Source: Patescibacteria group bacterium (lineage in GTDB: Bacteria > Patescibacteriota > Microgenomatia > Daviesbacterales > UBA10151). Taken from it: a stretch of 49,731 nucleotides of DNA. Below, in pieces: positions 3,010 through 45,571 of the stretch. Location of the stretch: the NCBI GenBank assembly GCA_018817205.1, contig JAHIUE010000080.1, positions 1 through 49,731 of the forward strand, read 5' to 3'. A model generated the notes under the pieces. It did not search any database. It was not told the origin of the DNA and saw only the letters and a list, made by a program, of their open reading frames with translations. Positions within the stretch are counted from its first letter, which is position 1; each line of letters starts with the position of its first letter. The translations under genes and the position numbers were made by a program.

Positions 3010-4188
3010 ATGAATACTAATAGAGTAGGTCGGTATAAAAAAATTTTATCCGGCGATTTTTCTTACAATGCGTTTGTTCCGAACTTTTTACCTCCGGTTC
3101 CACCGATAAAAATAGATGATACAATGCAAATGCTTTTGTCTAATGCAGACCGTGCCTTAGGAGCTCTTAATATAGTTACTGAATTATTACCGGACTCTGA
3201 TTATTTTATTTTTTCCTACTTAAGAAAAGAGGCTGCCCTATCAAGTCAAATTGAAGGTACTCAGGCAACCTTTGTAGATGTTGCTAAAGCTCAAGCGGGA
3301 GCAGTAGATAACGAGACGCCTCAGGATTATCCGGAAATTATTAATTATATAAACGCTATAAATTATGGGTTAAAAAGAATTCGTGAAGATGATTTTCCCA
3401 TGACTTTACGTCTGCTTAGGGAAATTCATGAAAGAATATTAAAAGGAGTTCGTGGTCAATATAAAACTCCTGGTGAGTTTAGAAAATCACAAAATTGGAT
3501 CGGCGGTGCATCAATTAATACGGCGTCTTATATACCTCCAACGGCAGACGATATGATTATGGGGATGAAAAATCTGGAGTCTTTTATTCATGATAAAAAG
3601 CCAATGCCAGTACTTATTAAAATTGGACTTATACATTCACAATTTGAAACGGTACATCCTTTTTTGGACGGAAACGGAAGAGTTGGTCGATTGCTTATAA
3701 CTTTACTGTTATGTCACTATGGCCTATTGGCTAAACCCGCTTTATATTTGTCAGAGTATTTTAAGGCTTTCAGAAGCGAATATTATGATAAGCTTCATGC
3801 GGTACACGAAAGAGGTGATTTTGAGGACTGGTTGAAATATTTTATAGAGGGAATATGGTTGGTAGCTGAAGAGGCAACGTCTACTGCTATGAAGATTAAG
3901 GCTTTAAAGGACAGAGATATTTTGAAACTTTCAAGTTTAAGTGCCCAATCTTCTAGAAATGCGATTAAGTTGTTTGAGAATCTGTTTAAAAGTCCGGTTA
4001 TGACCGTTAGTGACGTATCAAAACATACAGGACTATCTTATGCAAATGCTAATAATCTGGTAAAAAAGCTCATGGATCTTCAGATTTTAGAGCTAGTGGT
4101 TGAGAGAGAAAGAAATAGAGTTTTTGCATATACGGAGTATATAAACCTCTTCAGAAACAGAGAGTCATATAAAAGGCAATTAAATTAA
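3010..4188 (+). CDS. fic: Fic/DOC-family protein (AMPylase-type), class II autoinhibited
   Basis: Fic motif HPFLDGNGRVGRLL (HxFx[D/E]GNGRxxR). Upstream inhibitory motif SSQIEG fits (S/T)xxxE(G/N). N-terminal Fic/DOC N-domain-like segment and a C-terminal wHTH-like tail. Confidence 0.9.
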   Translation: MNTNRVGRYKKILSGDFSYNAFVPNFLPPVPPIKIDDTMQMLLSNADRALGALNIVTELLPDSDYFIFSYLRKEAALSSQIEGTQATFVDVAKAQAGAVDNETPQDYPEIINYINAINYGLKRIREDDFPMTLRLLREIHERILKGVRGQYKTPGEFRKSQNWIGGASINTASYIPPTADDMIMGMKNLESFIHDKKPMPVLIKIGLIHSQFETVHPFLDGNGRVGRLLITLLLCHYGLLAKPALYLSEYFKAFRSEYYDKLHAVHERGDFEDWLKYFIEGIWLVAEEATSTAMKIKALKDRDILKLSSLSAQSSRNAIKLFENLFKSPVMTVSDVSKHTGLSYANANNLVKKLMDLQILELVVERERNRVFAYTEYINLFRNRESYKRQLN

Positions 4189-9369: not shown

Positions 9370-9672
9370 TTAACTTTTCACAGAATAAACTACTTTGGTA
9401 AGTTTAGAACGGTAACCGATAGTTTTGCGGAAATTTGCCTTGGCATGAAATTTAGAAACCCTGATTTTGGGACCTTTGATATCCTCAACGCGTTTCAAAA
9501 TCAACTTGTCCTTTAAATAAGGATTGCCGATTTTTATTTTTCCGTCTTCGGATAGCAACAAGATGCTTGCTGTTATATCTTTATCGCCTTCTTGTCTTGC
9601 AACTTCAAAAGAAGTATTTGGGACGACTTTATATTGCTTGCCTGAAATTTCACAAATTGCATAAGTTAGCAT
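9370..9672 (-). CDS. rplU: 50S ribosomal protein L21
   Basis: [13 protein letters not shown] is the L21 N-terminus; sits immediately upstream of rpmA. Confidence 0.93.
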
Positions 9673-9681
9673 TGCTGCATT

Positions 9682-10728
9682 TTACCTTTTTTTGCCAGCG
9701 GATGCAACCATCCCCAAACACAAAAGCGTTGCTACCAATGAGCTGCCGCCATATGAAATTAGAGGCAAAGTAATGCCTGTTATCGGCATCAGCCCAATAT
9801 TCATTCCCATATTGACAAAAACCTGAAAAAGCAACATCGACACCACTCCAAGTACAATCAAACACAGAAAATGGCTTCTTGATCTAAGGGCAATTCTTAT
9901 AGAGTAAAGTAACAGGAAAAGATACGCCGACAATATCAACACCGATCCGACAAATCCCATCTCCTCCGCGATTGAGGCAAAGATGAAATCCGTTCTAAAT
10001 TCCGGTAAAAATTGTAAACGGGACTGCGTCCCTCTTCCCAAACCCCTGCCCAAAAGTTGTCCCGACCCCACCGCCACTGTCGATTGTATTAAATTATAGC
10101 CTCTACCCAGGGGATCGGACTCAGGGGAAAGAAAACCCAATACTCTTTGTCTTTGATAATCGTGTAAAAATATCCAGCTGGAAGGGATGGAAATAATAAT
10201 TATTAAGACAAGTATTATAATCTTCCGGATAGGAATGCGGGTTGCAAACAAGACACCTAACCAAATTGCGATAATAGTAAGAGAGGAACCAAGGTCGGGC
10301 TGGATAAAAATCAGCAGGAAATAGACTGATGTCCAAAGGATGCTCTTTATTATATTTCTCCACGTAGGTAAATTTTCCGACCAAAATTTAGCTAAAAATA
10401 ATATTAAAACCGGCTTGGCAAATTCCGAAGGCTGGATATTAAATACGCCAAAAGGAATCCAACGCAAAGCCCCCCTGGTCTCAATACCCAAGATAAATAC
10501 AGCCACAAGCAGCACAATCATTAAAATATATAAAGGGTTAATCAAATTCTTAAGCGCTTCCAGATCCAACCGTAAGATTAAAAAAGCTAATATCATTCCG
10601 GCTGCGGCAAAAATAAATTGCTGCATAGCCAGCTCTTTTGAGGAAGAATAAATTACCAATATTCCGATCGACATCAAAAGAAGCGTACTTAAAAATATCG
10701 GAAAATTTATAAGATTGACAAATTTCAT
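9682..10728 (-). CDS. rodA: SEDS-family peptidoglycan polymerase (RodA-like)
   Basis: 348-aa polytopic membrane protein with FtsW/RodA/SpoVE motifs (FQPSEFAK-like NIQPSEFAKP; PLISYGGSS). Called rodA because a second SEDS gene sits in the dcw cluster. Confidence 0.75.
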   Translation of the reverse strand: MKFVNLINFPIFLSTLLLMSIGILVIYSSSKELAMQQFIFAAAGMILAFLILRLDLEALKNLINPLYILMIVLLVAVFILGIETRGALRWIPFGVFNIQPSEFAKPVLILFLAKFWSENLPTWRNIIKSILWTSVYFLLIFIQPDLGSSLTIIAIWLGVLFATRIPIRKIIILVLIIIISIPSSWIFLHDYQRQRVLGFLSPESDPLGRGYNLIQSTVAVGSGQLLGRGLGRGTQSRLQFLPEFRTDFIFASIAEEMGFVGSVLILSAYLFLLLYSIRIALRSRSHFLCLIVLGVVSMLLFQVFVNMGMNIGLMPITGITLPLISYGGSSLVATLLCLGMVASAGKKR

Positions 10729-40115: not shown

Positions 40116-40757
40116 CTATTGGAACAGCCTTGCCCTGCCTAATTTATAATGAAGGTCCTTTATTTTCCTCTCCCCTATTGCTTCAGCAGGCACACCTCCA
40201 ACTATCGCATACTGGGAAACATCTTTTGTAACAACCGCCCCAGCGGCAATTATCGCTCCTTTCCCTATTTTTACCCCGGGCAGAATAATCGCCCTCGGAC
40301 CTATGAAAACATAATCCCCTACTTCAACAGAAGCGGATATTGCATGGAAATCTTCGGAATTTATATCGTGTTCACTGTTATAGATCATTACACCCGAAGC
40401 AATATCCACATGATTACCGATAATAAGTTTATCCCTGCCGTCCAAAAAAGCATTATCGCCAATAATTGTCCCCTCGCCAATGACAATATTGGGAAGGTAA
40501 TAAAAACGGGCTCCAACATGAATTCTTGATCCTTTTCCAATCCTTATTCCAGCCAGGCTGTACATAAATAAACGGAAGTAGTGACAAGGTATCAATCCTG
40601 CCCAAGTTAAAAGCATCAATTCAAAATCCAATATCCAGTTAAAGACCCTGTTTACGGCTTTTTTGGAAGCCTCTTGTGTACTTAATGGTTTTCCCATCCT
40701 GTCCTGAAATAGAGCCATATATAAGTTAATTATATGGGGAAAGACTAGTATAAGCAA
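40116..40757 (-). CDS. hexapeptide-repeat (LbH) O-acetyltransferase
   Basis: Repeated [LIV]G..xx hexapeptides (IGKGSRIHVGARF, IGEGTIIGDNAF, IGNHVDIASGVMI, IGKGAIIAAGAVV) and VGGVPA. Start may be ATG 40718. Confidence 0.85.
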   Translation of the reverse strand: MLILVFPHIINLYMALFQDRMGKPLSTQEASKKAVNRVFNWILDFELMLLTWAGLIPCHYFRLFMYSLAGIRIGKGSRIHVGARFYYLPNIVIGEGTIIGDNAFLDGRDKLIIGNHVDIASGVMIYNSEHDINSEDFHAISASVEVGDYVFIGPRAIILPGVKIGKGAIIAAGAVVTKDVSQYAIVGGVPAEAIGERKIKDLHYKLGRARLFQ

Positions 40758-40760
40758 ACC

Positions 40761-41456
40761 CTATGTGTAATATTTCCTAAGTAAGGCCATTGCCAAAATT
40801 TCAACACAGTTATAAATAGGCAAGGAATATCTCTTTGGAAAAACTAAAGGCAACTCTGTACACCCTAAAATAATTCCTTGCGCCCCTTCCTTTTTTAAAG
40901 AGTTTGCGACCCTTAAAAGCGTTTTTTCATCACTATATGTATTTTTTTCTTTTAAAACATTCTCAACAATATCCTTAAATAGTCTTTGTATATTTTCTGT
41001 CGGGATAAGAACATCTACACCTTTTTTCTTCAAAGCTTCCTGATATAATCCCTCTCTTATTGTAGCAGGAGAAGCCAATAACCCAATTCTATTTACATTA
41101 TCTTTACTTACTTGCAATGCAACTTCCTTAATCATAGAAAGAAATGGAGTTTTTGACACTTGTTGAAGATCATTAAGTAATAAGTGAGCTGTATTGCATA
41201 CAATACAAAAAGATAAAACATCACATTTATCTAATTGAATTACTCTTTGCTTAAGCATTTTCAATGCAATCTTCTTTTCGTAATCATTAGCAATAAAACC
41301 TGGTATAGGAATGGAGTCAAGAATAATTTCCGGAAAATCAGCATTGTTTTTTACACCAAAAAACTTCACTGACAATTCTATCAGTAACTTGCATAAATAT
41401 AATGACGCTTGAGGTCCTATTCCTCCTAAAATACCAATAGCTTTTTTACTTTTCAT
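40761..41456 (-). CDS. Asp/Glu/hydantoin-racemase family protein (aspartate-racemase-like)
   Basis: GILGGIGPQAS, and both catalytic Cys boxes CNTAH and LGCTELPL. The ATG overlaps the radical-SAM stop by 4 nt. Confidence 0.88.
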   Translation of the reverse strand: MKSKKAIGILGGIGPQASLYLCKLLIELSVKFFGVKNNADFPEIILDSIPIPGFIANDYEKKIALKMLKQRVIQLDKCDVLSFCIVCNTAHLLLNDLQQVSKTPFLSMIKEVALQVSKDNVNRIGLLASPATIREGLYQEALKKKGVDVLIPTENIQRLFKDIVENVLKEKNTYSDEKTLLRVANSLKKEGAQGIILGCTELPLVFPKRYSLPIYNCVEILAMALLRKYYT

Positions 41457-42688
41457 ACTTTAAAGATGGTTTTCTCCATTTCTCCAAGAGCCAACCCTGG
41501 CCTGGTATCAAGACCACACTTTATTACTCCTTCTTGTCTTAATAAATCCAAAGAGCAATCACCGCATAAATCCGGCATATCGTCTATTGTCTTTTTCTCT
41601 TCATTAAATATACAATTTAGTTGACAAAGGCGATAACAACCTGTTGTCACTAAACCTGTCCACCAGCAACCCGAACCTCGACATAGCTCCTTACAGCTTT
41701 GAATTCTAAAACCCTGTTCTAAAAATGCTTGCCTTATTGAGTTTTGCTCTATCTGTCCGAAAGTTCCTGATAAGACATTTCCAAATTTAGCATAGTTTGT
41801 ACTACCTCTGCCCATATTAGTACATGGCAAATAAAGCCCATCATTATTGATCTGACCTCCTTTTTTTATCATATCGCATGCTTCATCATAGGCCTGAGGC
41901 GAAACAGCATCATTGTAGGTTGGTAAGATTAATCCTATTTCTCTATCTATCTCTATAAATTCCTCCATTTGGACAACAATCCTTTTGGTTAGCAACGGAT
42001 AAGTAGTCAACCACTCAATCTGCCTATCGTAGCTTTCATTGGGTGGAGATACATATTCCATGATTGGTTTAGTACCCAAACTTTCTCTCGCCCACCTAAA
42101 TACTCTGCTCAAATTGCCGTTATTCATTACAGCATCAGTTAAACAGCATTGCATCATCAATCTATCTCCTCCTTTTTCTTTAAAGATCCTCTCTGCATTT
42201 CTCCATGCCGCATGACTATTTTGAAGAGTACCGAGTTTACCTACACTAACGTCCTGAATCTTTTCCGCTAAAGTATCATCATCTATAGTATGTCTATGCA
42301 TTAATAAACTTACGCCCGGGATAAGCACTTGACGCGCATAGGCTTCATCAGCAAACCTTAATCCATGGCTTATTAACAATACGAACTTAAACCCTAAATT
42401 AACTGCTTCCTGTAATAATTGAGGTAAATCGGGATTTTGTGTGGGTTCCGCACCCAAGAAGTATACTTCAGTAACTCCGGCTTCTCTTAATTTACGCATC
42501 GTTTTGGAAGCAATTTCCGGTAGTAAATAACCTGCTTTTCCAGCCCCGGGAGGTCGATAGCAATGAGGACACGCTAAATCACAAGCTTCTGACGCATCAA
42601 GACCAGCACCATTAATTTTAACTGGTCCGTCTTTTTGACCAGTAAATCCTCTAAATTCGTTTATTGATTCTAATTTGCCTATTGGCAT
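41453..42688 (-). CDS. radical SAM enzyme with Cys-rich SPASM/twitch-like C-terminal domain
   Basis: CDLACPHCY fits CxxxCxxC; GAEPTQNPDL fits the GGEP-like motif. The C-terminal cluster is CKELCRGSGCWWTGLVTTGCYRLCQLNC...CGDC. AGGAGAGGA RBS at 42691-42699. Confidence 0.85.
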   Translation of the reverse strand: MPIGKLESINEFRGFTGQKDGPVKINGAGLDASEACDLACPHCYRPPGAGKAGYLLPEIASKTMRKLREAGVTEVYFLGAEPTQNPDLPQLLQEAVNLGFKFVLLISHGLRFADEAYARQVLIPGVSLLMHRHTIDDDTLAEKIQDVSVGKLGTLQNSHAAWRNAERIFKEKGGDRLMMQCCLTDAVMNNGNLSRVFRWARESLGTKPIMEYVSPPNESYDRQIEWLTTYPLLTKRIVVQMEEFIEIDREIGLILPTYNDAVSPQAYDEACDMIKKGGQINNDGLYLPCTNMGRGSTNYAKFGNVLSGTFGQIEQNSIRQAFLEQGFRIQSCKELCRGSGCWWTGLVTTGCYRLCQLNCIFNEEKKTIDDMPDLCGDCSLDLLRQEGVIKCGLDTRPGLALGEMEKTIFKV

Positions 42689-42707
42689 ATTCCTCTCCTT
42701 TCCATTT

Positions 42708-42756
42708 AAAAAACCCTTGCAAATTTCCGATCAATACAATCAGAAACTCACAAGGG
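42708..42756 (-). terminator. intrinsic terminator of the T-box leader
   Basis: 18-bp hairpin (4 G-U pairs) pairing 42739-42756 with 42714-42731, 7-nt loop, followed by UUUUUU (42708-42713). Its 5' arm CCCUUG is shared with the antiterminator. Confidence 0.8.
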
Positions 42757-42901
42757 CCATTTAGGCGGTGCCACCTTGATTTTTACTTATTCATGCTCTT
42801 CTTTTTCTTCATAGAAAACAAAGAGTGCTGACTTTTACGGTTTCGCCTCCGTAGCATACTCTTGCTCTACTCCCCGGTTCCAACCTTCCGGATCAAAGCA
42901 T
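42708..42901 (-). promoter_or_regulatory. T-box riboswitch (tRNA-responsive leader)
   Basis: T-box core AAGGUGGCACCGCC (42764-42777). Canonical antiterminator: helix CAAGG/CCUUG, 7-nt bulge UGGCACC, helix GCC/GGC, loop UAAAU. A competing terminator is present. The Stem-I-like part has a K-turn-like base, an AGAGUA bulge and an AGGCGAAA distal loop. Confidence 0.75.
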
Positions 42902-42912
42902 TTATAGTTTTT

Positions 42913-43170
42913 CTAATTTACTACTTTAAATCTTCCTTTCTGCAGTTCTCTTGAACCGCGGGTTACTGTTGCAACCCCAACTCCTAAACTTTCTGCAATT
43001 CCCTGCTGGGGAATACCCTGTTTTAGCATTTTAACAATACGCAATCTCATTGGAATTTCCAGCCGTTCCTTTGGAGTTAAAATCCCCAAAAGAAAATCTT
43101 CCATCTTGTCTTCTCTTTTAATAGTTAATAATAAATTAATCAACTCTTGAAGTTGCTTATTTCTAACCAT
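42913..43170 (-). CDS. TrpR-family (TrpR / YerC-YecD-like) repressor
   Basis: 85 aa. LLGILTPKERLEIPMRLRIVKMLKQGIPQQGIAESLGVGVATVTRGSRELQ aligns with E. coli TrpR [53 protein letters not shown] (recalled sequence). Confidence 0.85.
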   Translation of the reverse strand: MVRNKQLQELINLLLTIKREDKMEDFLLGILTPKERLEIPMRLRIVKMLKQGIPQQGIAESLGVGVATVTRGSRELQKGRFKVVN

Positions 43171-43173
43171 TGC

Positions 43174-43207
43174 GTACTAGTATACTAGTACAAGAGTATT
43201 GTGTCAA
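43174..43207 (-). promoter_or_regulatory. promoter with an overlapping perfect 18-bp trp-operator-like palindrome
   Basis: Minus strand: TTGACA (43202-43207), 17-nt spacer, TATACT (43179-43184), then 8 nt to ATG 43170. The palindrome GTACTAGTATACTAGTAC (43174-43191) covers the -10. Confidence 0.75.
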
Positions 43208-43234: not shown

Positions 43235-43636
43235 TTATAGTTGCAGGTCTGTGATGGCTCTTGCTAAATCTTCAATCGTACTCCACTTGAATGATTGGGA
43301 TGCTATCGCCGGCACATACGTTTTCGTAACGGTGTCTTTAGTTGCCGCAATAATTGGGACCCTTTTCGCCATGCAGTAACCTACCTCAATCAACATCCCT
43401 TCACTTTTGTTATCTGAAGTCTGAACCACAAAGAGAAAATCTGCATTGTCGATAATGCCAAAAGCGTGTTCCATGATTTGGCGGACACCAAGAGATTTAC
43501 CTTCTATGGCCTCATCAAAGAAAGTACTGTATGCCTCGATCCCTCGACCTTTGAACGCCTCCCTGATAGCAATCAGTACAGGTTCGACTGCCTGAGGATC
43601 CTCACCAGTCGAGCGGTAAGCAATAAAGGCTTTCAT
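43235..43636 (-). CDS. nucleoside 2-deoxyribosyltransferase-like / TIR-like flavodoxin-fold protein
   Basis: 133 aa. MKAFIAYRSTGED start, DNADFLFVV, and SEGMLIEVGYCMAKRVPIIA resemble the NDT family pattern (aD.vva.l....s.Gt..E.GyA.a.gkPv). About 50 % GC. Confidence 0.55.
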   Translation of the reverse strand: MKAFIAYRSTGEDPQAVEPVLIAIREAFKGRGIEAYSTFFDEAIEGKSLGVRQIMEHAFGIIDNADFLFVVQTSDNKSEGMLIEVGYCMAKRVPIIAATKDTVTKTYVPAIASQSFKWSTIEDLARAITDLQL

Positions 43637-43739
43637 AATAAGCTAATTATAGCAAATGCAAAAAGATTGTCCCAGCCTACGCTTTACTTATTATGAAATT
43701 AAAATATAATAAGCTTCATAAATTGAACTATAGAGTCAT

Positions 43740-44819
43740 ATGAGCGCCTGCGAACAATTGGATACAGTAGTTACCCGACGATTAGATGAGTATGCATCAG
43801 CCGTTACCACACCTGATGCTCCTGAAGTTGCCTTACCCGGAGGTATCGAGATAATTAATACCGAGTTCACGCCAGATACCTTGGGTATGAAGGTTGTTTT
43901 CACCGGCACGCGGAACGACGGTAAGGTAGCCACCTTTGAAACCGGCAGCTTTTTAGATAATGGCGGGGTCGAAAACGCTTCCGATCGACATGATATTTGT
44001 GTATCGACTGCCGGCGGTTGCACTAAGGCTTGCCGGTTCTGTTCGGTGCCATATTCTGAACTTGGCTTTGAACGCCTACTCACCGCCGAAGAATTGGTGG
44101 TCCAGACTATCTATACGATTCTGGAACGAAATCGCGGGGCTTCTATGCCAAATGCTCTAGGCTTCATGGGTAATGGTGAACCATCAGATAACGCCGCCGT
44201 CATCCCGGCAGTATGTTACTTAGCTGACAAACCTGAGCTAAATATAGAAAGAGTTACCTTTTCGACGATCGGCGAAAATATAGCCGGCATTGGTAAAATG
44301 GCCAGGAGTTTTGCTCAGCTCGATATGCGAACCATTATGCAATTTAGTCTGCATGCCGCCGATGAGACAAAACGCCGCTCAATCATACCAGGTCGAAAAC
44401 CACTTGATAAGATTCTAAAGGCGATCGATGGATACGGTGAAGTTACCGGTGAACCGGTAAAGTTCAATGTCGCACTCATGGATGGCACCTATGATTTCAA
44501 AGGCTTTACTAATGCTTCGCCAGAGGATGCTCGAATGTTGGCGCAAATCCTTACGGCACCAAGTGCCGTTTCGGGCAATCCCATCAGACGGCTCCTCAAG
44601 CTATCCGCCTACAATAGTGTTCCAGGTATACCATTTGAGCCGGCGTCATCTGTCGCAGTAGAAGCTTTTGTGGCTATTTTAGCTGAACATGGTATAACTG
44701 ATATTCAAAGGTTTCGGGGAAGTGGTATAGAAATTAATGAACAAAAAACTATTGGCGGCTTCGCTTGTGGACAGCTCAGAGCCACCACACCTAATACCCT
44801 AGCGAAAGTTCATCAATAA
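43740..44819 (+). CDS. RlmN/Cfr-family radical SAM methyltransferase-like enzyme lacking the N-terminal RNA-binding domain
   Basis: ICVSTAGGCTKACRFCS matches RlmN LCVSSQVGCALECKFCS, including the Cys118 equivalent. Also FMGNGEP, VTFSTIG, FSLHA, and C-terminal FACGQL (Cys355 equivalent). 359 aa. Confidence 0.8.
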   Translation: MSACEQLDTVVTRRLDEYASAVTTPDAPEVALPGGIEIINTEFTPDTLGMKVVFTGTRNDGKVATFETGSFLDNGGVENASDRHDICVSTAGGCTKACRFCSVPYSELGFERLLTAEELVVQTIYTILERNRGASMPNALGFMGNGEPSDNAAVIPAVCYLADKPELNIERVTFSTIGENIAGIGKMARSFAQLDMRTIMQFSLHAADETKRRSIIPGRKPLDKILKAIDGYGEVTGEPVKFNVALMDGTYDFKGFTNASPEDARMLAQILTAPSAVSGNPIRRLLKLSAYNSVPGIPFEPASSVAVEAFVAILAEHGITDIQRFRGSGIEINEQKTIGGFACGQLRATTPNTLAKVHQ

Positions 44820-45571
44820 GAATCAACGGCGGTAGCCGGTTTTTGGGTACTGACGAATAGGTGTAAGAATGGGAAAGATAAGCGGTCGGCGGTATGATAC
44901 CTATCGCCTAAGATTGTAACCACTTCGTCCGCTCTTTCCATGAAAGCATCGTTTCTCGCTCGCTCACCGTTAGAGGCCAGGAAGGCCATAGCCATTATCA
45001 TTTGAGTTACAGTGTCGGCTGTCAAGGTGCTGGTGACGTTTTGAATCTCAGTTTCTCCCTTAGCTTGCAAAGCACGTAGACAATCATGCAAGCTGTCATT
45101 AAATTGCTCACTATAACCAAGCCCGACATGGTCAAGTAGTTGGCTCCAGTCATCCTGCTTGATGCCGAGGTGGGTGACCACCAGCAAATGTCCGCCGGGT
45201 TTGACTAGTCCCCAGGCCGGGGGAACTAGCGTGGCGTGCTCACCGGCTGTGTGGGAAATGACATGGGACATCAGCACTAGGTCGTACAAACCCTTAACCT
45301 CTGTAGGAAACACTTCCTCAATAACCTGTTTGCCGGCCTGACGCAACCGGGCGGCGTACTGCGGGTTCTGCTCAATGGCCACATAATCCTCAACCATTTC
45401 TGAAAGAGGCAGAGCTACTTGGCCGTCGCCAGCGCCAATGTCGAGCAACGAGTTAGCATTATAGCGAATGATGTAGTCAGAGAATTTCGCAACATAAATT
45501 TGCTTTTCATCGGTACACTGCAGAAGGCTTTCAAGGCCTTGATAGTAGAGAACTTCAAAAGTCTGCGGCAT
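44813..45571 (-). CDS. class I SAM-dependent methyltransferase
   Basis: LLDIGAGDGQVA (motif I), VAIEQNP (motif II), YDLVLMSHVISH, LKPGGHLLV. Converges on the RlmN-like gene with a 7-nt overlap. Confidence 0.8.
   Translation of the reverse strand: MPQTFEVLYYQGLESLLQCTDEKQIYVAKFSDYIIRYNANSLLDIGAGDGQVALPLSEMVEDYVAIEQNPQYAARLRQAGKQVIEEVFPTEVKGLYDLVLMSHVISHTAGEHATLVPPAWGLVKPGGHLLVVTHLGIKQDDWSQLLDHVGLGYSEQFNDSLHDCLRALQAKGETEIQNVTSTLTADTVTQMIMAMAFLASNGERARNDAFMERADEVVTILGDRYHTADRLSFPFLHLFVSTQKPATAVDSY

Follow-up and report, generated by a model that had tools for sequence, protein, structure and literature searches.

Why would a bacterium place a radical S-adenosylmethionine (rSAM) enzyme and a racemase behind two stacked amino acid sensors, and which amino acid do these sensors report? 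Such a locus lies on contig JAHIUE010000080.1 of a Microgenomates bacterium of the candidate phyla radiation (CPR; assembly GCA_018817205.1); the window analysed here is the complete contig, 49,731 nt long, and we refer to its locus as WIN and to the loci of its relatives by L numbers. CPR bacteria lack most amino acid biosynthesis, tryptophan is the costliest amino acid, and to our knowledge the route by which these bacteria acquire it is largely unknown. We think it reasonably likely that the WIN unit is an operon induced by tryptophan starvation, whose two enzymes serve tryptophan supply or salvage. The rSAM-racemase locus is supported as an undescribed module under two stacked amino acid sensors, and our literature search found no description of the rSAM family, of its pairing with a racemase, or of T-boxes in CPR bacteria. 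A preliminary description of this locus had listed its structural elements and gene order, including a 4-nt overlap between the rSAM and racemase genes, and all are present at the coordinates it gave. The parts of the unit as analysed here are:

43179..43207, (-) strand: predicted sigma-70-type promoter of the trpR-rSAM-racemase unit, TTGACA-17-TATACT
43174..43191, strand not applicable: predicted trp operator GTACTAGTATACTAGTAC, an 18-bp perfect palindrome that overlaps the -10 hexamer and the transcription start
42913..43170, (-) strand: trpR-type repressor gene, 85 aa, PF01371
42905..42749, (-) strand: T-box-like leader match, Rfam RF00230, sub-threshold
42873..42892, (-) strand: putative T-box Stem I, 5-bp hairpin, with predicted specifier UGG (Trp) at 42882..42880
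42751..42778, (-) strand: putative T-box core and antiterminator from the Rfam alignment, bulge UGGC at 42773..42770
42706..42758, (-) strand: predicted intrinsic terminator, 20-bp stem and U-run, 5′ arm overlapping the antiterminator 3′ strands
41453..42688, (-) strand: radical SAM gene, 411 aa, PF04055 core, 15 invariant Cys
40761..41456, (-) strand: racemase gene, 231 aa, two-Cys type independent of pyridoxal phosphate, PF01177
40719..40760, (-) strand: racemase-acetyltransferase gap with promoter-like TTGCTT-17-TATAAT, probable 3′ boundary of the Trp-controlled unit

The trpR promoter (43207..43179, minus strand) is the top promoter match of the region, agreeing at 11 of 12 positions, and the same promoter-operator arrangement is found at L001, L005, and L022. 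The operator occurs once in the window, where 0.01 matches with up to three mismatches are expected by chance. With its flanks it reads TGTACTAGTATACTAGTACG, which agrees at 19 of 20 positions with the published TrpR motif TGTAcTnGTnnACnAgTACA and does not fit the Firmicute-type motif cacTTTAnnnnnnTAAAgtg of HisR/YerC, the histidine-sensing branch of the same family (PMC9413887). Its 16-nt core, TACTAGTATACTAGTA, recurs unchanged at the trpR promoters of L001, L005, and L022; at L021, which codes for a TrpR 93% identical to that of WIN, the operator is degenerate. The TrpR open reading frame (ORF) matches PF01371 with 72.4 bits (cutoff 27; E = 3e-20), scores 58.8 bits with the TIGR01321 equivalog, under its cutoff of 67.25, and 31 bits with the YerC/HisR model. 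It is 35% identical to Escherichia coli TrpR (BLASTP) and retains LTPxER, RxRIV, and ATxTRGS. The counterparts of E. coli Thr44, Arg54, Thr81, Arg84, and Gly85, which contact L-Trp and DNA there (in part PMC9413887), are retained as well. Members of this family can sense other ligands, as HisR senses histidine (PMC9413887), but judged by its residues and its predicted operator the window's repressor appears to be of the true TrpR type. We note that L005 carries a second TrpR-family gene (9519-9845, minus strand), of the YerC/HisR type (TIGR02531, 56 bits, cutoff 42), which ends the Trp cluster there and is convergent with TrpRS-HIT-HAD genes, TrpRS being tryptophanyl-tRNA synthetase.

A 224-nt leader separates trpR from the rSAM gene. 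The T-box within it starts 8 nt past the trpR stop codon, leaving no room for a second promoter, so both sensors lie in series on one transcript. Rfam reports no T-box in WIN at its gathering threshold; homologous leaders are nevertheless found in seven independent lineages (WIN, L001, L019, L022, L018, L003, and L017). In all seven, Stem I is a hairpin of only 5-8 bp that holds the specifier in its terminal loop, not in an internal loop; in the Rfam alignment of WIN, 8 nt stand for 74 Stem I model positions. The WIN arms, UCCGG/CCGGG, close the terminal loop AAGGUUGGAA, and the arms covary fully among leaders, with AUAGAGC/GCUCUAU in L003 and UCAAGC/GCUUGA in L017. Arm complementarity was computed by script, and formal pair counting was dropped (MAFFT split the 9-nt and 10-nt loop registers). 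The loop consensus is A[AU]GGUUGG[AG], in which GGUUGG(A/G) is invariant in 7/7 leaders, and UGG followed by a purine is the sole codon constant across the seven loops. A glycine specifier, GGA, was considered and ruled out because the L003 loop reads GGUUGGG and the context is that of tryptophan. We read the specifier as UGG, and the sensed amino acid as tryptophan.

The 3′ half of the leader has the parts expected of a transcriptional T-box. In WIN, the core AAGGUGGCACCGCC would form helix A1 (CAAGG/CCUUG), a 7-nt bulge (UGGCACC), and helix A2 (GCC/GGC), and bulge residues UGGC (42773..42770) would pair with the tRNA 3′ end. Over the seven leaders, all of which keep the 14-nt T-box core and the 7-nt bulge, 100% of the antiterminator cells are paired, with three compensatory pairs and a UGGNACC bulge; this score was reached by 0 of 500 shuffles, and slid registers collapse. 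The WIN terminator is a 20-bp hairpin with a T-run (42758..42712) that shares GGCCCUUG with the antiterminator, the folding energy of the 3′ domain is -33.5 kcal/mol, and equivalent terminators overlap the antiterminator in 7/7 leaders. The leaders with an ultrashort Stem I include the following:

WIN 42708-42905, (-) strand
L022 768-905
L001 5724-5985
L018 4405-4745
L003 4947-5160
L017 1245-1485

The shortest of these, in L022, is ~135 nt long and consists of the Stem I hairpin and the antiterminator/terminator, without Stem II, IIA/B, or III. In L018, L003, and L017, the element is preceded by a promoter of its own and lies ahead of TrpB2 (L018) or of tRNA-Trp/TrpRS. In the latter two loci (L003 4947-5254; L017 1245-1564), a tRNA-Trp(CCA) gene lies within 20-50 nt downstream of the Trp T-box and terminator and ahead of the protein genes, so that the sensed tRNA apparently lies downstream of its own sensor. 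There is no T-box in L021, L005, or L008; at L021 399-1169, its place between trpR and the rSAM gene is taken by two ORFs (63 and 192 aa) that match no family. The L003 leader scores 35.4 bits with RF00230, and because leaders of this kind score ~35 bits, standard annotation misses them. Conservation and covariation in seven lineages validate the leader as a putative Trp T-box of an unusual kind. The two stacked amino acid sensors of the preliminary description are thereby borne out, and can be described more sharply as both Trp-specific and arranged in series; from this anatomy we infer a serial AND-gate logic.

The first enzyme, the rSAM protein, has an invariant cluster motif, C36xxxC40xxC43, and 12 further invariant Cys. 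PF04055 matches only residues 34-119 (41 bits, cutoff 29.5), no NCBIfam equivalog matches (the best are N-terminal matches to TrsS and Tes), and PDB sequence and Foldseek searches returned generic core matches only, with no specific neighbour. These generic matches are GDGT-MAS, SkfB, BlsE, MoaA, and viperin, with TM-scores of ≤0.40; the best structure match, 7tol, has E = 3e-8 by sequence and a TM-score of 0.37-0.40. In the AF2 model, residues ~55-210 have pLDDT values of 75-94 and fit rSAM structures, and the model is good to ~250 only. A search of 5.8 billion clusters yielded a family of 27 members with identities of 59% or more, exclusively from Patescibacteria/Microgenomates, and among 1.84 billion proteins the family is reduced at 50% identity to a single representative; a scan of species-representative genomes gave no match. 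The protein thus stands outside any characterised family, as had been supposed, and appears to be the founding member of a rare, uncurated Microgenomates family.

The same protein had been called SPASM-type, and this stood in part. The CxxxCxxC motif and the Cys-rich C-terminus are present, but SPASM itself is undetectable in the window protein (no match to PF13186 at E up to 1), and only 6 of 21 family members match. Beyond the family, full-length relatives begin with uncurated SPASM proteins (E = 1e-39 to 1e-12), and homologues with 27% identity carry SPASM above the cutoff and align across the Cys-rich region; distant relatives match the peptide maturases WgkB, PqqE, StsB, and MftC weakly, far under the family cutoffs. 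A C-terminal motif, GSGCWWTGLVTTGCYRLCQLNC, is found in this family alone. We regard the C-terminal half as probably divergent and SPASM-like, a label that it earns by homology to SPASM-bearing relatives. Profile searches with Pfam and NCBIfam found no RNA-binding domain (TRAM, PUA, or THUMP) in the protein. The preliminary description had also noted the lack of a precursor-peptide ORF, and we likewise found no conserved small ORF beside the rSAM gene in 14 lineages, the number of distinct lineages with usable flanks, WIN included, on which all neighbourhood counts below are based; in WIN, the T-box takes up the space upstream, and downstream the next gene overlaps.

That downstream gene codes for the second enzyme, a racemase with 102.8 bits to PF01177 (cutoff 31; E = 3e-29) and 136.5 bits to the TIGR00035 'amino acid racemase' model (cutoff 93.1). 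Its ATG overlaps the rSAM stop codon as ATGA (41453-41456), and the two genes are predicted to be translationally coupled. The two catalytic Cys boxes, CNTAH and GCTE, reported earlier for WIN are both present and are invariant in seven orthologues. The nearest solved relative is the aspartate racemase of Pyrococcus horikoshii (PDB 1jfl; E = 1e-26), and the protein remains under the equivalog cutoffs of the cysteate racemase CuyB (141 bits versus 190) and PRK10200 (57 versus 417). Arg48-Thr49-Ala50 of the P. horikoshii enzyme are deleted in 7/7 CPR racemases, with a Phe after the gap. Arg48 is reported to bind the aspartate β-carboxylate, and if this role holds, the substrate of the CPR racemases is probably not aspartate.

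The company that the rSAM gene keeps also points to tryptophan. Each of the 14 lineages has one Trp-specific neighbour or more, namely TrpR (6 lineages), the Trp T-box (7), a tRNA-Trp gene (3), TrpRS (9), or TrpB2 (4). The assignments of TrpB2 (TIGR01415, 649 bits, cutoff 519) and TrpRS (TIGR00233, 270-290 bits, cutoff 177) are above their cutoffs. The gene orders, with FlavinRed for flavin reductase, are as follows:

WIN, L001, L019, L021, L022 (clade A, rSAM at least 71% identical): TrpR-(T-box)-rSAM-racemase-acetyltransferase-DUF-Wzy-PMT
L008: TrpR-rSAM-racemase-TrpRS
L012/L013/L020: tRNA-Trp-racemase-TrpRS-FlavinRed-rSAM-tRNA_bind
L005: HisC-like-TrpR-TrpB2-FlavinRed-rSAM-TrpRS
L018: T-box-TrpB2-FlavinRed-rSAM-TrpRS
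L009, L011: TrpB2-FlavinRed-rSAM-TrpRS
L003, L017: T-box-tRNA-Trp-FlavinRed-rSAM-AlaXM-TrpRS
L010: TrpRS-FlavinRed-rSAM

Conservation of the rSAM-racemase pairing, proposed as a check in the preliminary description, holds for the five close lineages and, rearranged, for L008 and L012/L013, but not for the remaining 7 of the 14. Where the racemase does occur, its linkage takes three different gene orders, which argues for functional linkage rather than inherited synteny; where it is absent, an overlapping flavin reductase, TrpB2, and TrpRS are the rSAM partners. TrpB2, with at least 8,000 close relatives, is very common in Microgenomates, so the rSAM gene is a rare addition to a common Trp module. 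Other tRNA-handling genes near the rSAM gene are AlaXM, tRNA_bind, DTD, and YbaK-like genes. Depending on the lineage, the rSAM family is flanked by one of two TrpRS types (L003/L017 versus L005/L012), which are ~32% identical and both exceed the trpS equivalog cutoff.

The flavin reductase gene is present in 8/14 lineages, where it overlaps the rSAM start by 10 nt, and its close relatives (~18 proteins at least 58% identical) track rSAM clade B. Sister flavin reductases, 52-57% identical, are translationally coupled in the reverse order to SPASM rSAM proteins at the following loci:

L023/L027 4721-6570: sister rSAM and flavin reductase pair
L025 4835-6525: sister rSAM and flavin reductase pair
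L028 5742-7486: sister rSAM and flavin reductase pair

Full-length alignment of these sister rSAMs with the window rSAM has an hhalign probability of 99.8% (E = 1e-28 to 1e-30, 27% identity), and they share with it the motifs QCC[LI]T and SPQAY..C.M. Among the metagenome-assembled genomes that carry them are ones labelled Aenigmarchaeota (DPANN; L028) and Methanosarcinales (L027). The rSAM-flavin reductase pair appears from these comparisons to be older than the Trp link, and its distribution suggests that the two-gene unit was transferred between CPR bacteria and ultra-small archaea. In L026, a flavin reductase with 46% identity has no paired rSAM. The L028 neighbour that resembles shikimate kinase has the generic AroK fold only (54 bits, cutoff 186) and was rejected as such and not used as evidence.

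Where the Trp-controlled unit ends matters for its interpretation. The acetyltransferase that follows the racemase had been placed 3 nt away and without an intervening terminator. That 3-nt gap rested on a TTG start; four acetyltransferase orthologues start at the equivalent of ATG 40718 (MALFQDRMGK), which leaves a gap of 42 nt. The gap carries a promoter-like TTG(C/A)TT-17-TATAAT, conserved in WIN, L021, and L022:

WIN 40719-40760, (-) strand: conserved TTTCCCCATATAATTAAC element
L021 ~3225-3254: conserved TTTCCCCATATAATTAAC element
L022 ~2925-2957: conserved TTTCCCCATATAATTAAC element

The element ends ~10 nt before the acetyltransferase ATG, which implies a predicted promoter giving a very short-leadered or leaderless mRNA for the glycan cluster. 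Its spacer in WIN contains a TACTAGT half-operator. In L001, a convergent YbaK-like gene lies between racemase and acetyltransferase, and together with the conserved element this indicates that the glycan genes are probably a separate unit.

These observations are consistent with the following mechanism. Transcription would start at a single promoter with a TrpR operator, and only when free L-Trp is low. The transcript would encode TrpR first and then meet the intercistronic Trp T-box (UGG), and readthrough into the rSAM and racemase genes would follow only when uncharged tRNA-Trp stabilises the antiterminator, so that TrpR and the T-box in series would act as an AND gate. The rSAM enzyme may carry out a radical reaction on a Trp-related small molecule, working in most relatives with the flavin reductase (an FMN reductase), which is probably its electron donor, and the racemase may convert a D-form (D-Trp, or the substrate or product of the rSAM enzyme) to the usable L-form. 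The most likely role would be salvage, giving indole for TrpB2, or Trp itself. The preliminary description's proposal of salvage or D- to L-amino acid conversion would fit this context. We favour a small-molecule Trp role because the neighbours include TrpB2, the racemase, and a HisC-like aminotransferase, there is no precursor ORF, and the rSAM protein has no detected RNA-binding domain. A more specific version, which we put forward only tentatively, is a new CPR salvage route in which the rSAM enzyme (with the flavin reductase) makes indole or Trp from an environmental or host precursor, together with TrpB2 and/or a Trp-directed racemase, gated by a minimal T-box and TrpR, and with a core shared with DPANN-type archaea.

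Several observations weigh against a tryptophan supply operon. The 49.7-kb window encodes no TrpB2, TrpRS, or flavin reductase, close flavin reductases are found on none of the clade A contigs, and the neighbours of the sister pairs are BtpA, an AroK-fold kinase, and methyltransferases, with no Trp-related gene. No reaction can be assigned to the rSAM enzyme, for which sequence and fold searches return generic rSAM/SPASM neighbours; the C-terminal half of its AF2 model has pLDDT <50 and gives no base for a SPASM call, and SPASM enzymes usually modify peptides or proteins. The tRNA-related genes near the rSAM gene (tRNA-Trp, TrpRS, AlaXM, tRNA_bind, DTD, and YbaK-like) also fit a role directed at tRNA or aminoacyl-tRNA synthetases. 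As for the leader, a permissive 1-kb search gives WIN 36.3 bits with RF00230 (E = 3e-6), far from the gathering score of 93. An ultrashort Stem I characterises the translational T-boxes of actinobacteria, and the distal Stem I platform, the interdigitated T-loop motif (IDTM) to which the tRNA elbow binds, is deemed essential in transcriptional ones (PMC7583486); the WIN-type T-boxes are transcriptional in anatomy yet lack this platform, a combination that the literature regards as non-functional.

Four other explanations were weighed. The main rival, which we consider unlikely, is that the rSAM enzyme and flavin reductase modify tRNA-Trp, TrpRS, or Trp-tRNA(Trp) and so tune charging or decoding at low Trp, with the racemase removing D-Trp, which could otherwise be mischarged by TrpRS. 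The radical SAM proteins with auxiliary clusters include several known tRNA-modifying enzymes, TrpRS is found more often than any other neighbour (9/14 lineages), L003, L017, and L012/L013 have a tRNA-Trp gene directly upstream, and the other tRNA-handling genes are adjacent. However, the rSAM protein shows none of the RNA-binding domains TRAM, PUA, or THUMP, the two unrelated TrpRS types (32% identical) argue against a specific protein substrate, and TrpB2, racemase, and aminotransferase are small-molecule enzymes; moreover, neither TrpRS nor tRNA-Trp lies near the rSAM gene in the window's own clade, and CPR genomes are so dense in translation genes that such adjacencies are partly expected. 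It is also improbable, in our estimate, that the rSAM protein matures a protein or a ribosomally synthesized and post-translationally modified peptide (RiPP) encoded elsewhere, for instance a Trp-containing peptide, with an indirect link to Trp regulation. Its distant relatives with a bona fide SPASM domain and their weak similarity to WgkB, PqqE, StsB, and MftC would fit, and the 12 extra conserved Cys could bind auxiliary clusters, but all of the maturase matches are far under family cutoffs, and induction by Trp starvation is opposite to the need of a Trp-consuming product. No conserved small ORF adjoins the gene in the 14 lineages, and the small ORFs that follow the L023 sister pair are membrane-protein-like and not conserved in L028.

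The preliminary description had offered a further idea, that the pair supplies a D-amino acid or modified building block to the downstream acetyltransferase, Wzy, PMT, and glycosyltransferase envelope genes. The order rSAM-racemase-hexapeptide acetyltransferase-DUF-Wzy-PMT is kept in the five clade A lineages, glycosyltransferase genes also lie upstream of trpR, and the window has no predicted terminator after the racemase. This idea is weakened by the promoter-like element before the acetyltransferase start in WIN, L021, and L022, by the convergent gene in L001, and by the Trp context elsewhere: the racemase adjoins TrpRS in L008 and L012/L013, and the rSAM gene sits in Trp operons without glycan genes in nine lineages. 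Trp-specific double control would also make little sense for envelope synthesis, and we hold this role to be quite improbable. Very improbable, finally, is a decayed or chance T-box, with rSAM and racemase simply co-transcribed with trpR. The low Rfam score, the missing distal platform deemed essential in transcriptional T-boxes (PMC7583486), and the loci without a T-box (L021, L005, and L008) speak for it. Against it, the UGG loop, the overlapping terminator, the 14-nt core, and the 7-nt bulge are retained in seven independent leaders, Stem I and helices A1 and A2 show compensatory changes, and the element stands behind its own promoter ahead of TrpB2 or tRNA-Trp/TrpRS in L018, L003, and L017.

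An operon for tryptophan supply has a precedent in trpRBA of Chlamydia trachomatis, a TrpR-controlled indole salvage system in a reduced-genome bacterium. As predicted for WIN, the TrpR gene heads a short autoregulated operon; there, Trp is regenerated from a scavenged precursor without a de novo pathway, and the L005 order (TrpR-TrpB2-...-TrpRS) resembles it. In contrast to trpRBA, the window's enzymes are an uncharacterised rSAM protein with a racemase (and a flavin reductase in relatives), TrpA is absent, TrpB is of the stand-alone TrpB2 type and not encoded in the window, and the T-box would add a second, tRNA-based checkpoint. The CPR leaders share with the Firmicute Trp T-boxes of trpS and trp operons (RF00230) the UGG specifier, the T-box core, the UGGN bulge, mutually exclusive antiterminator and terminator, and the predicted control of TrpRS or Trp-supply genes. 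They differ in their 5-8-bp Stem I, terminal-loop specifier, lack of a distal platform, and Rfam score (36 bits versus 93); the WIN element is also intercistronic instead of 5′-terminal, and that of L022 lacks Stem II, IIA/B, and III. The actinobacterial ileS T-boxes with an 'ultrashort' Stem I, as PMC7583486 relates them from Sherwood et al. 2015, are translational and sequester the Shine-Dalgarno sequence. They likewise have a truncated Stem I without the tRNA-elbow platform and a specifier in the terminal loop, but the CPR leaders have a canonical intrinsic terminator, are predicted to respond to Trp rather than Ile, and belong to a different phylum.

For the enzymes, the closest parallels are SPASM/twitch rSAMs that act on non-peptide substrates (AhbD/NirJ, GDGT-MAS/Tes, BtrN, and MoaA), which have a CxxxCxxC core and a Cys-rich C-terminus. 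They are the best, though weak, matches of the window rSAM, far under cutoffs, and unlike theirs its gene context is Trp rather than haem, lipid, or cofactor synthesis. The CPR racemases have the fold and both catalytic Cys motifs of P. horikoshii aspartate racemase (1jfl) and TIGR00035, but also the 3-residue deletion, and their genes are embedded in Trp operons. A rare rSAM family that always occurs with Trp-specific elements is a specific, regulated candidate for tryptophan acquisition in CPR bacteria. Its reaction, once found, would enlarge Trp metabolism by an enzyme, perhaps even by a pathway, and would explain the frequent stand-alone TrpB2. Platform-less transcriptional T-boxes, as short as ~135 nt in L022, bear on the minimal requirements for tRNA sensing, and they show that T-boxes in CPR genomes escape standard Rfam annotation.

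Two minor observations concern the flanks. Upstream of trpR in the window, 43235-45571 is a three-gene insertion with 47.1% GC, compared with 36-38% in its flanks. It codes for a nucleoside 2-deoxyribosyltransferase-like protein (133 aa), an RlmN/Cfr-like rSAM (359 aa, plus strand) with scores far under the equivalog thresholds, and a class I methyltransferase (252 aa). Because a glycosyltransferase gene directly precedes trpR in L001 and L022, this segment looks like a horizontally acquired island. L003 has a match to a group I intron (3950-4164, minus strand; RF00028, 74 bits, above the gathering score) a few kilobases upstream of its Trp cluster; a helix-turn-helix (HTH)/TnsD-like ORF adjoins the match, and a tRNA-Met gene is nearby.

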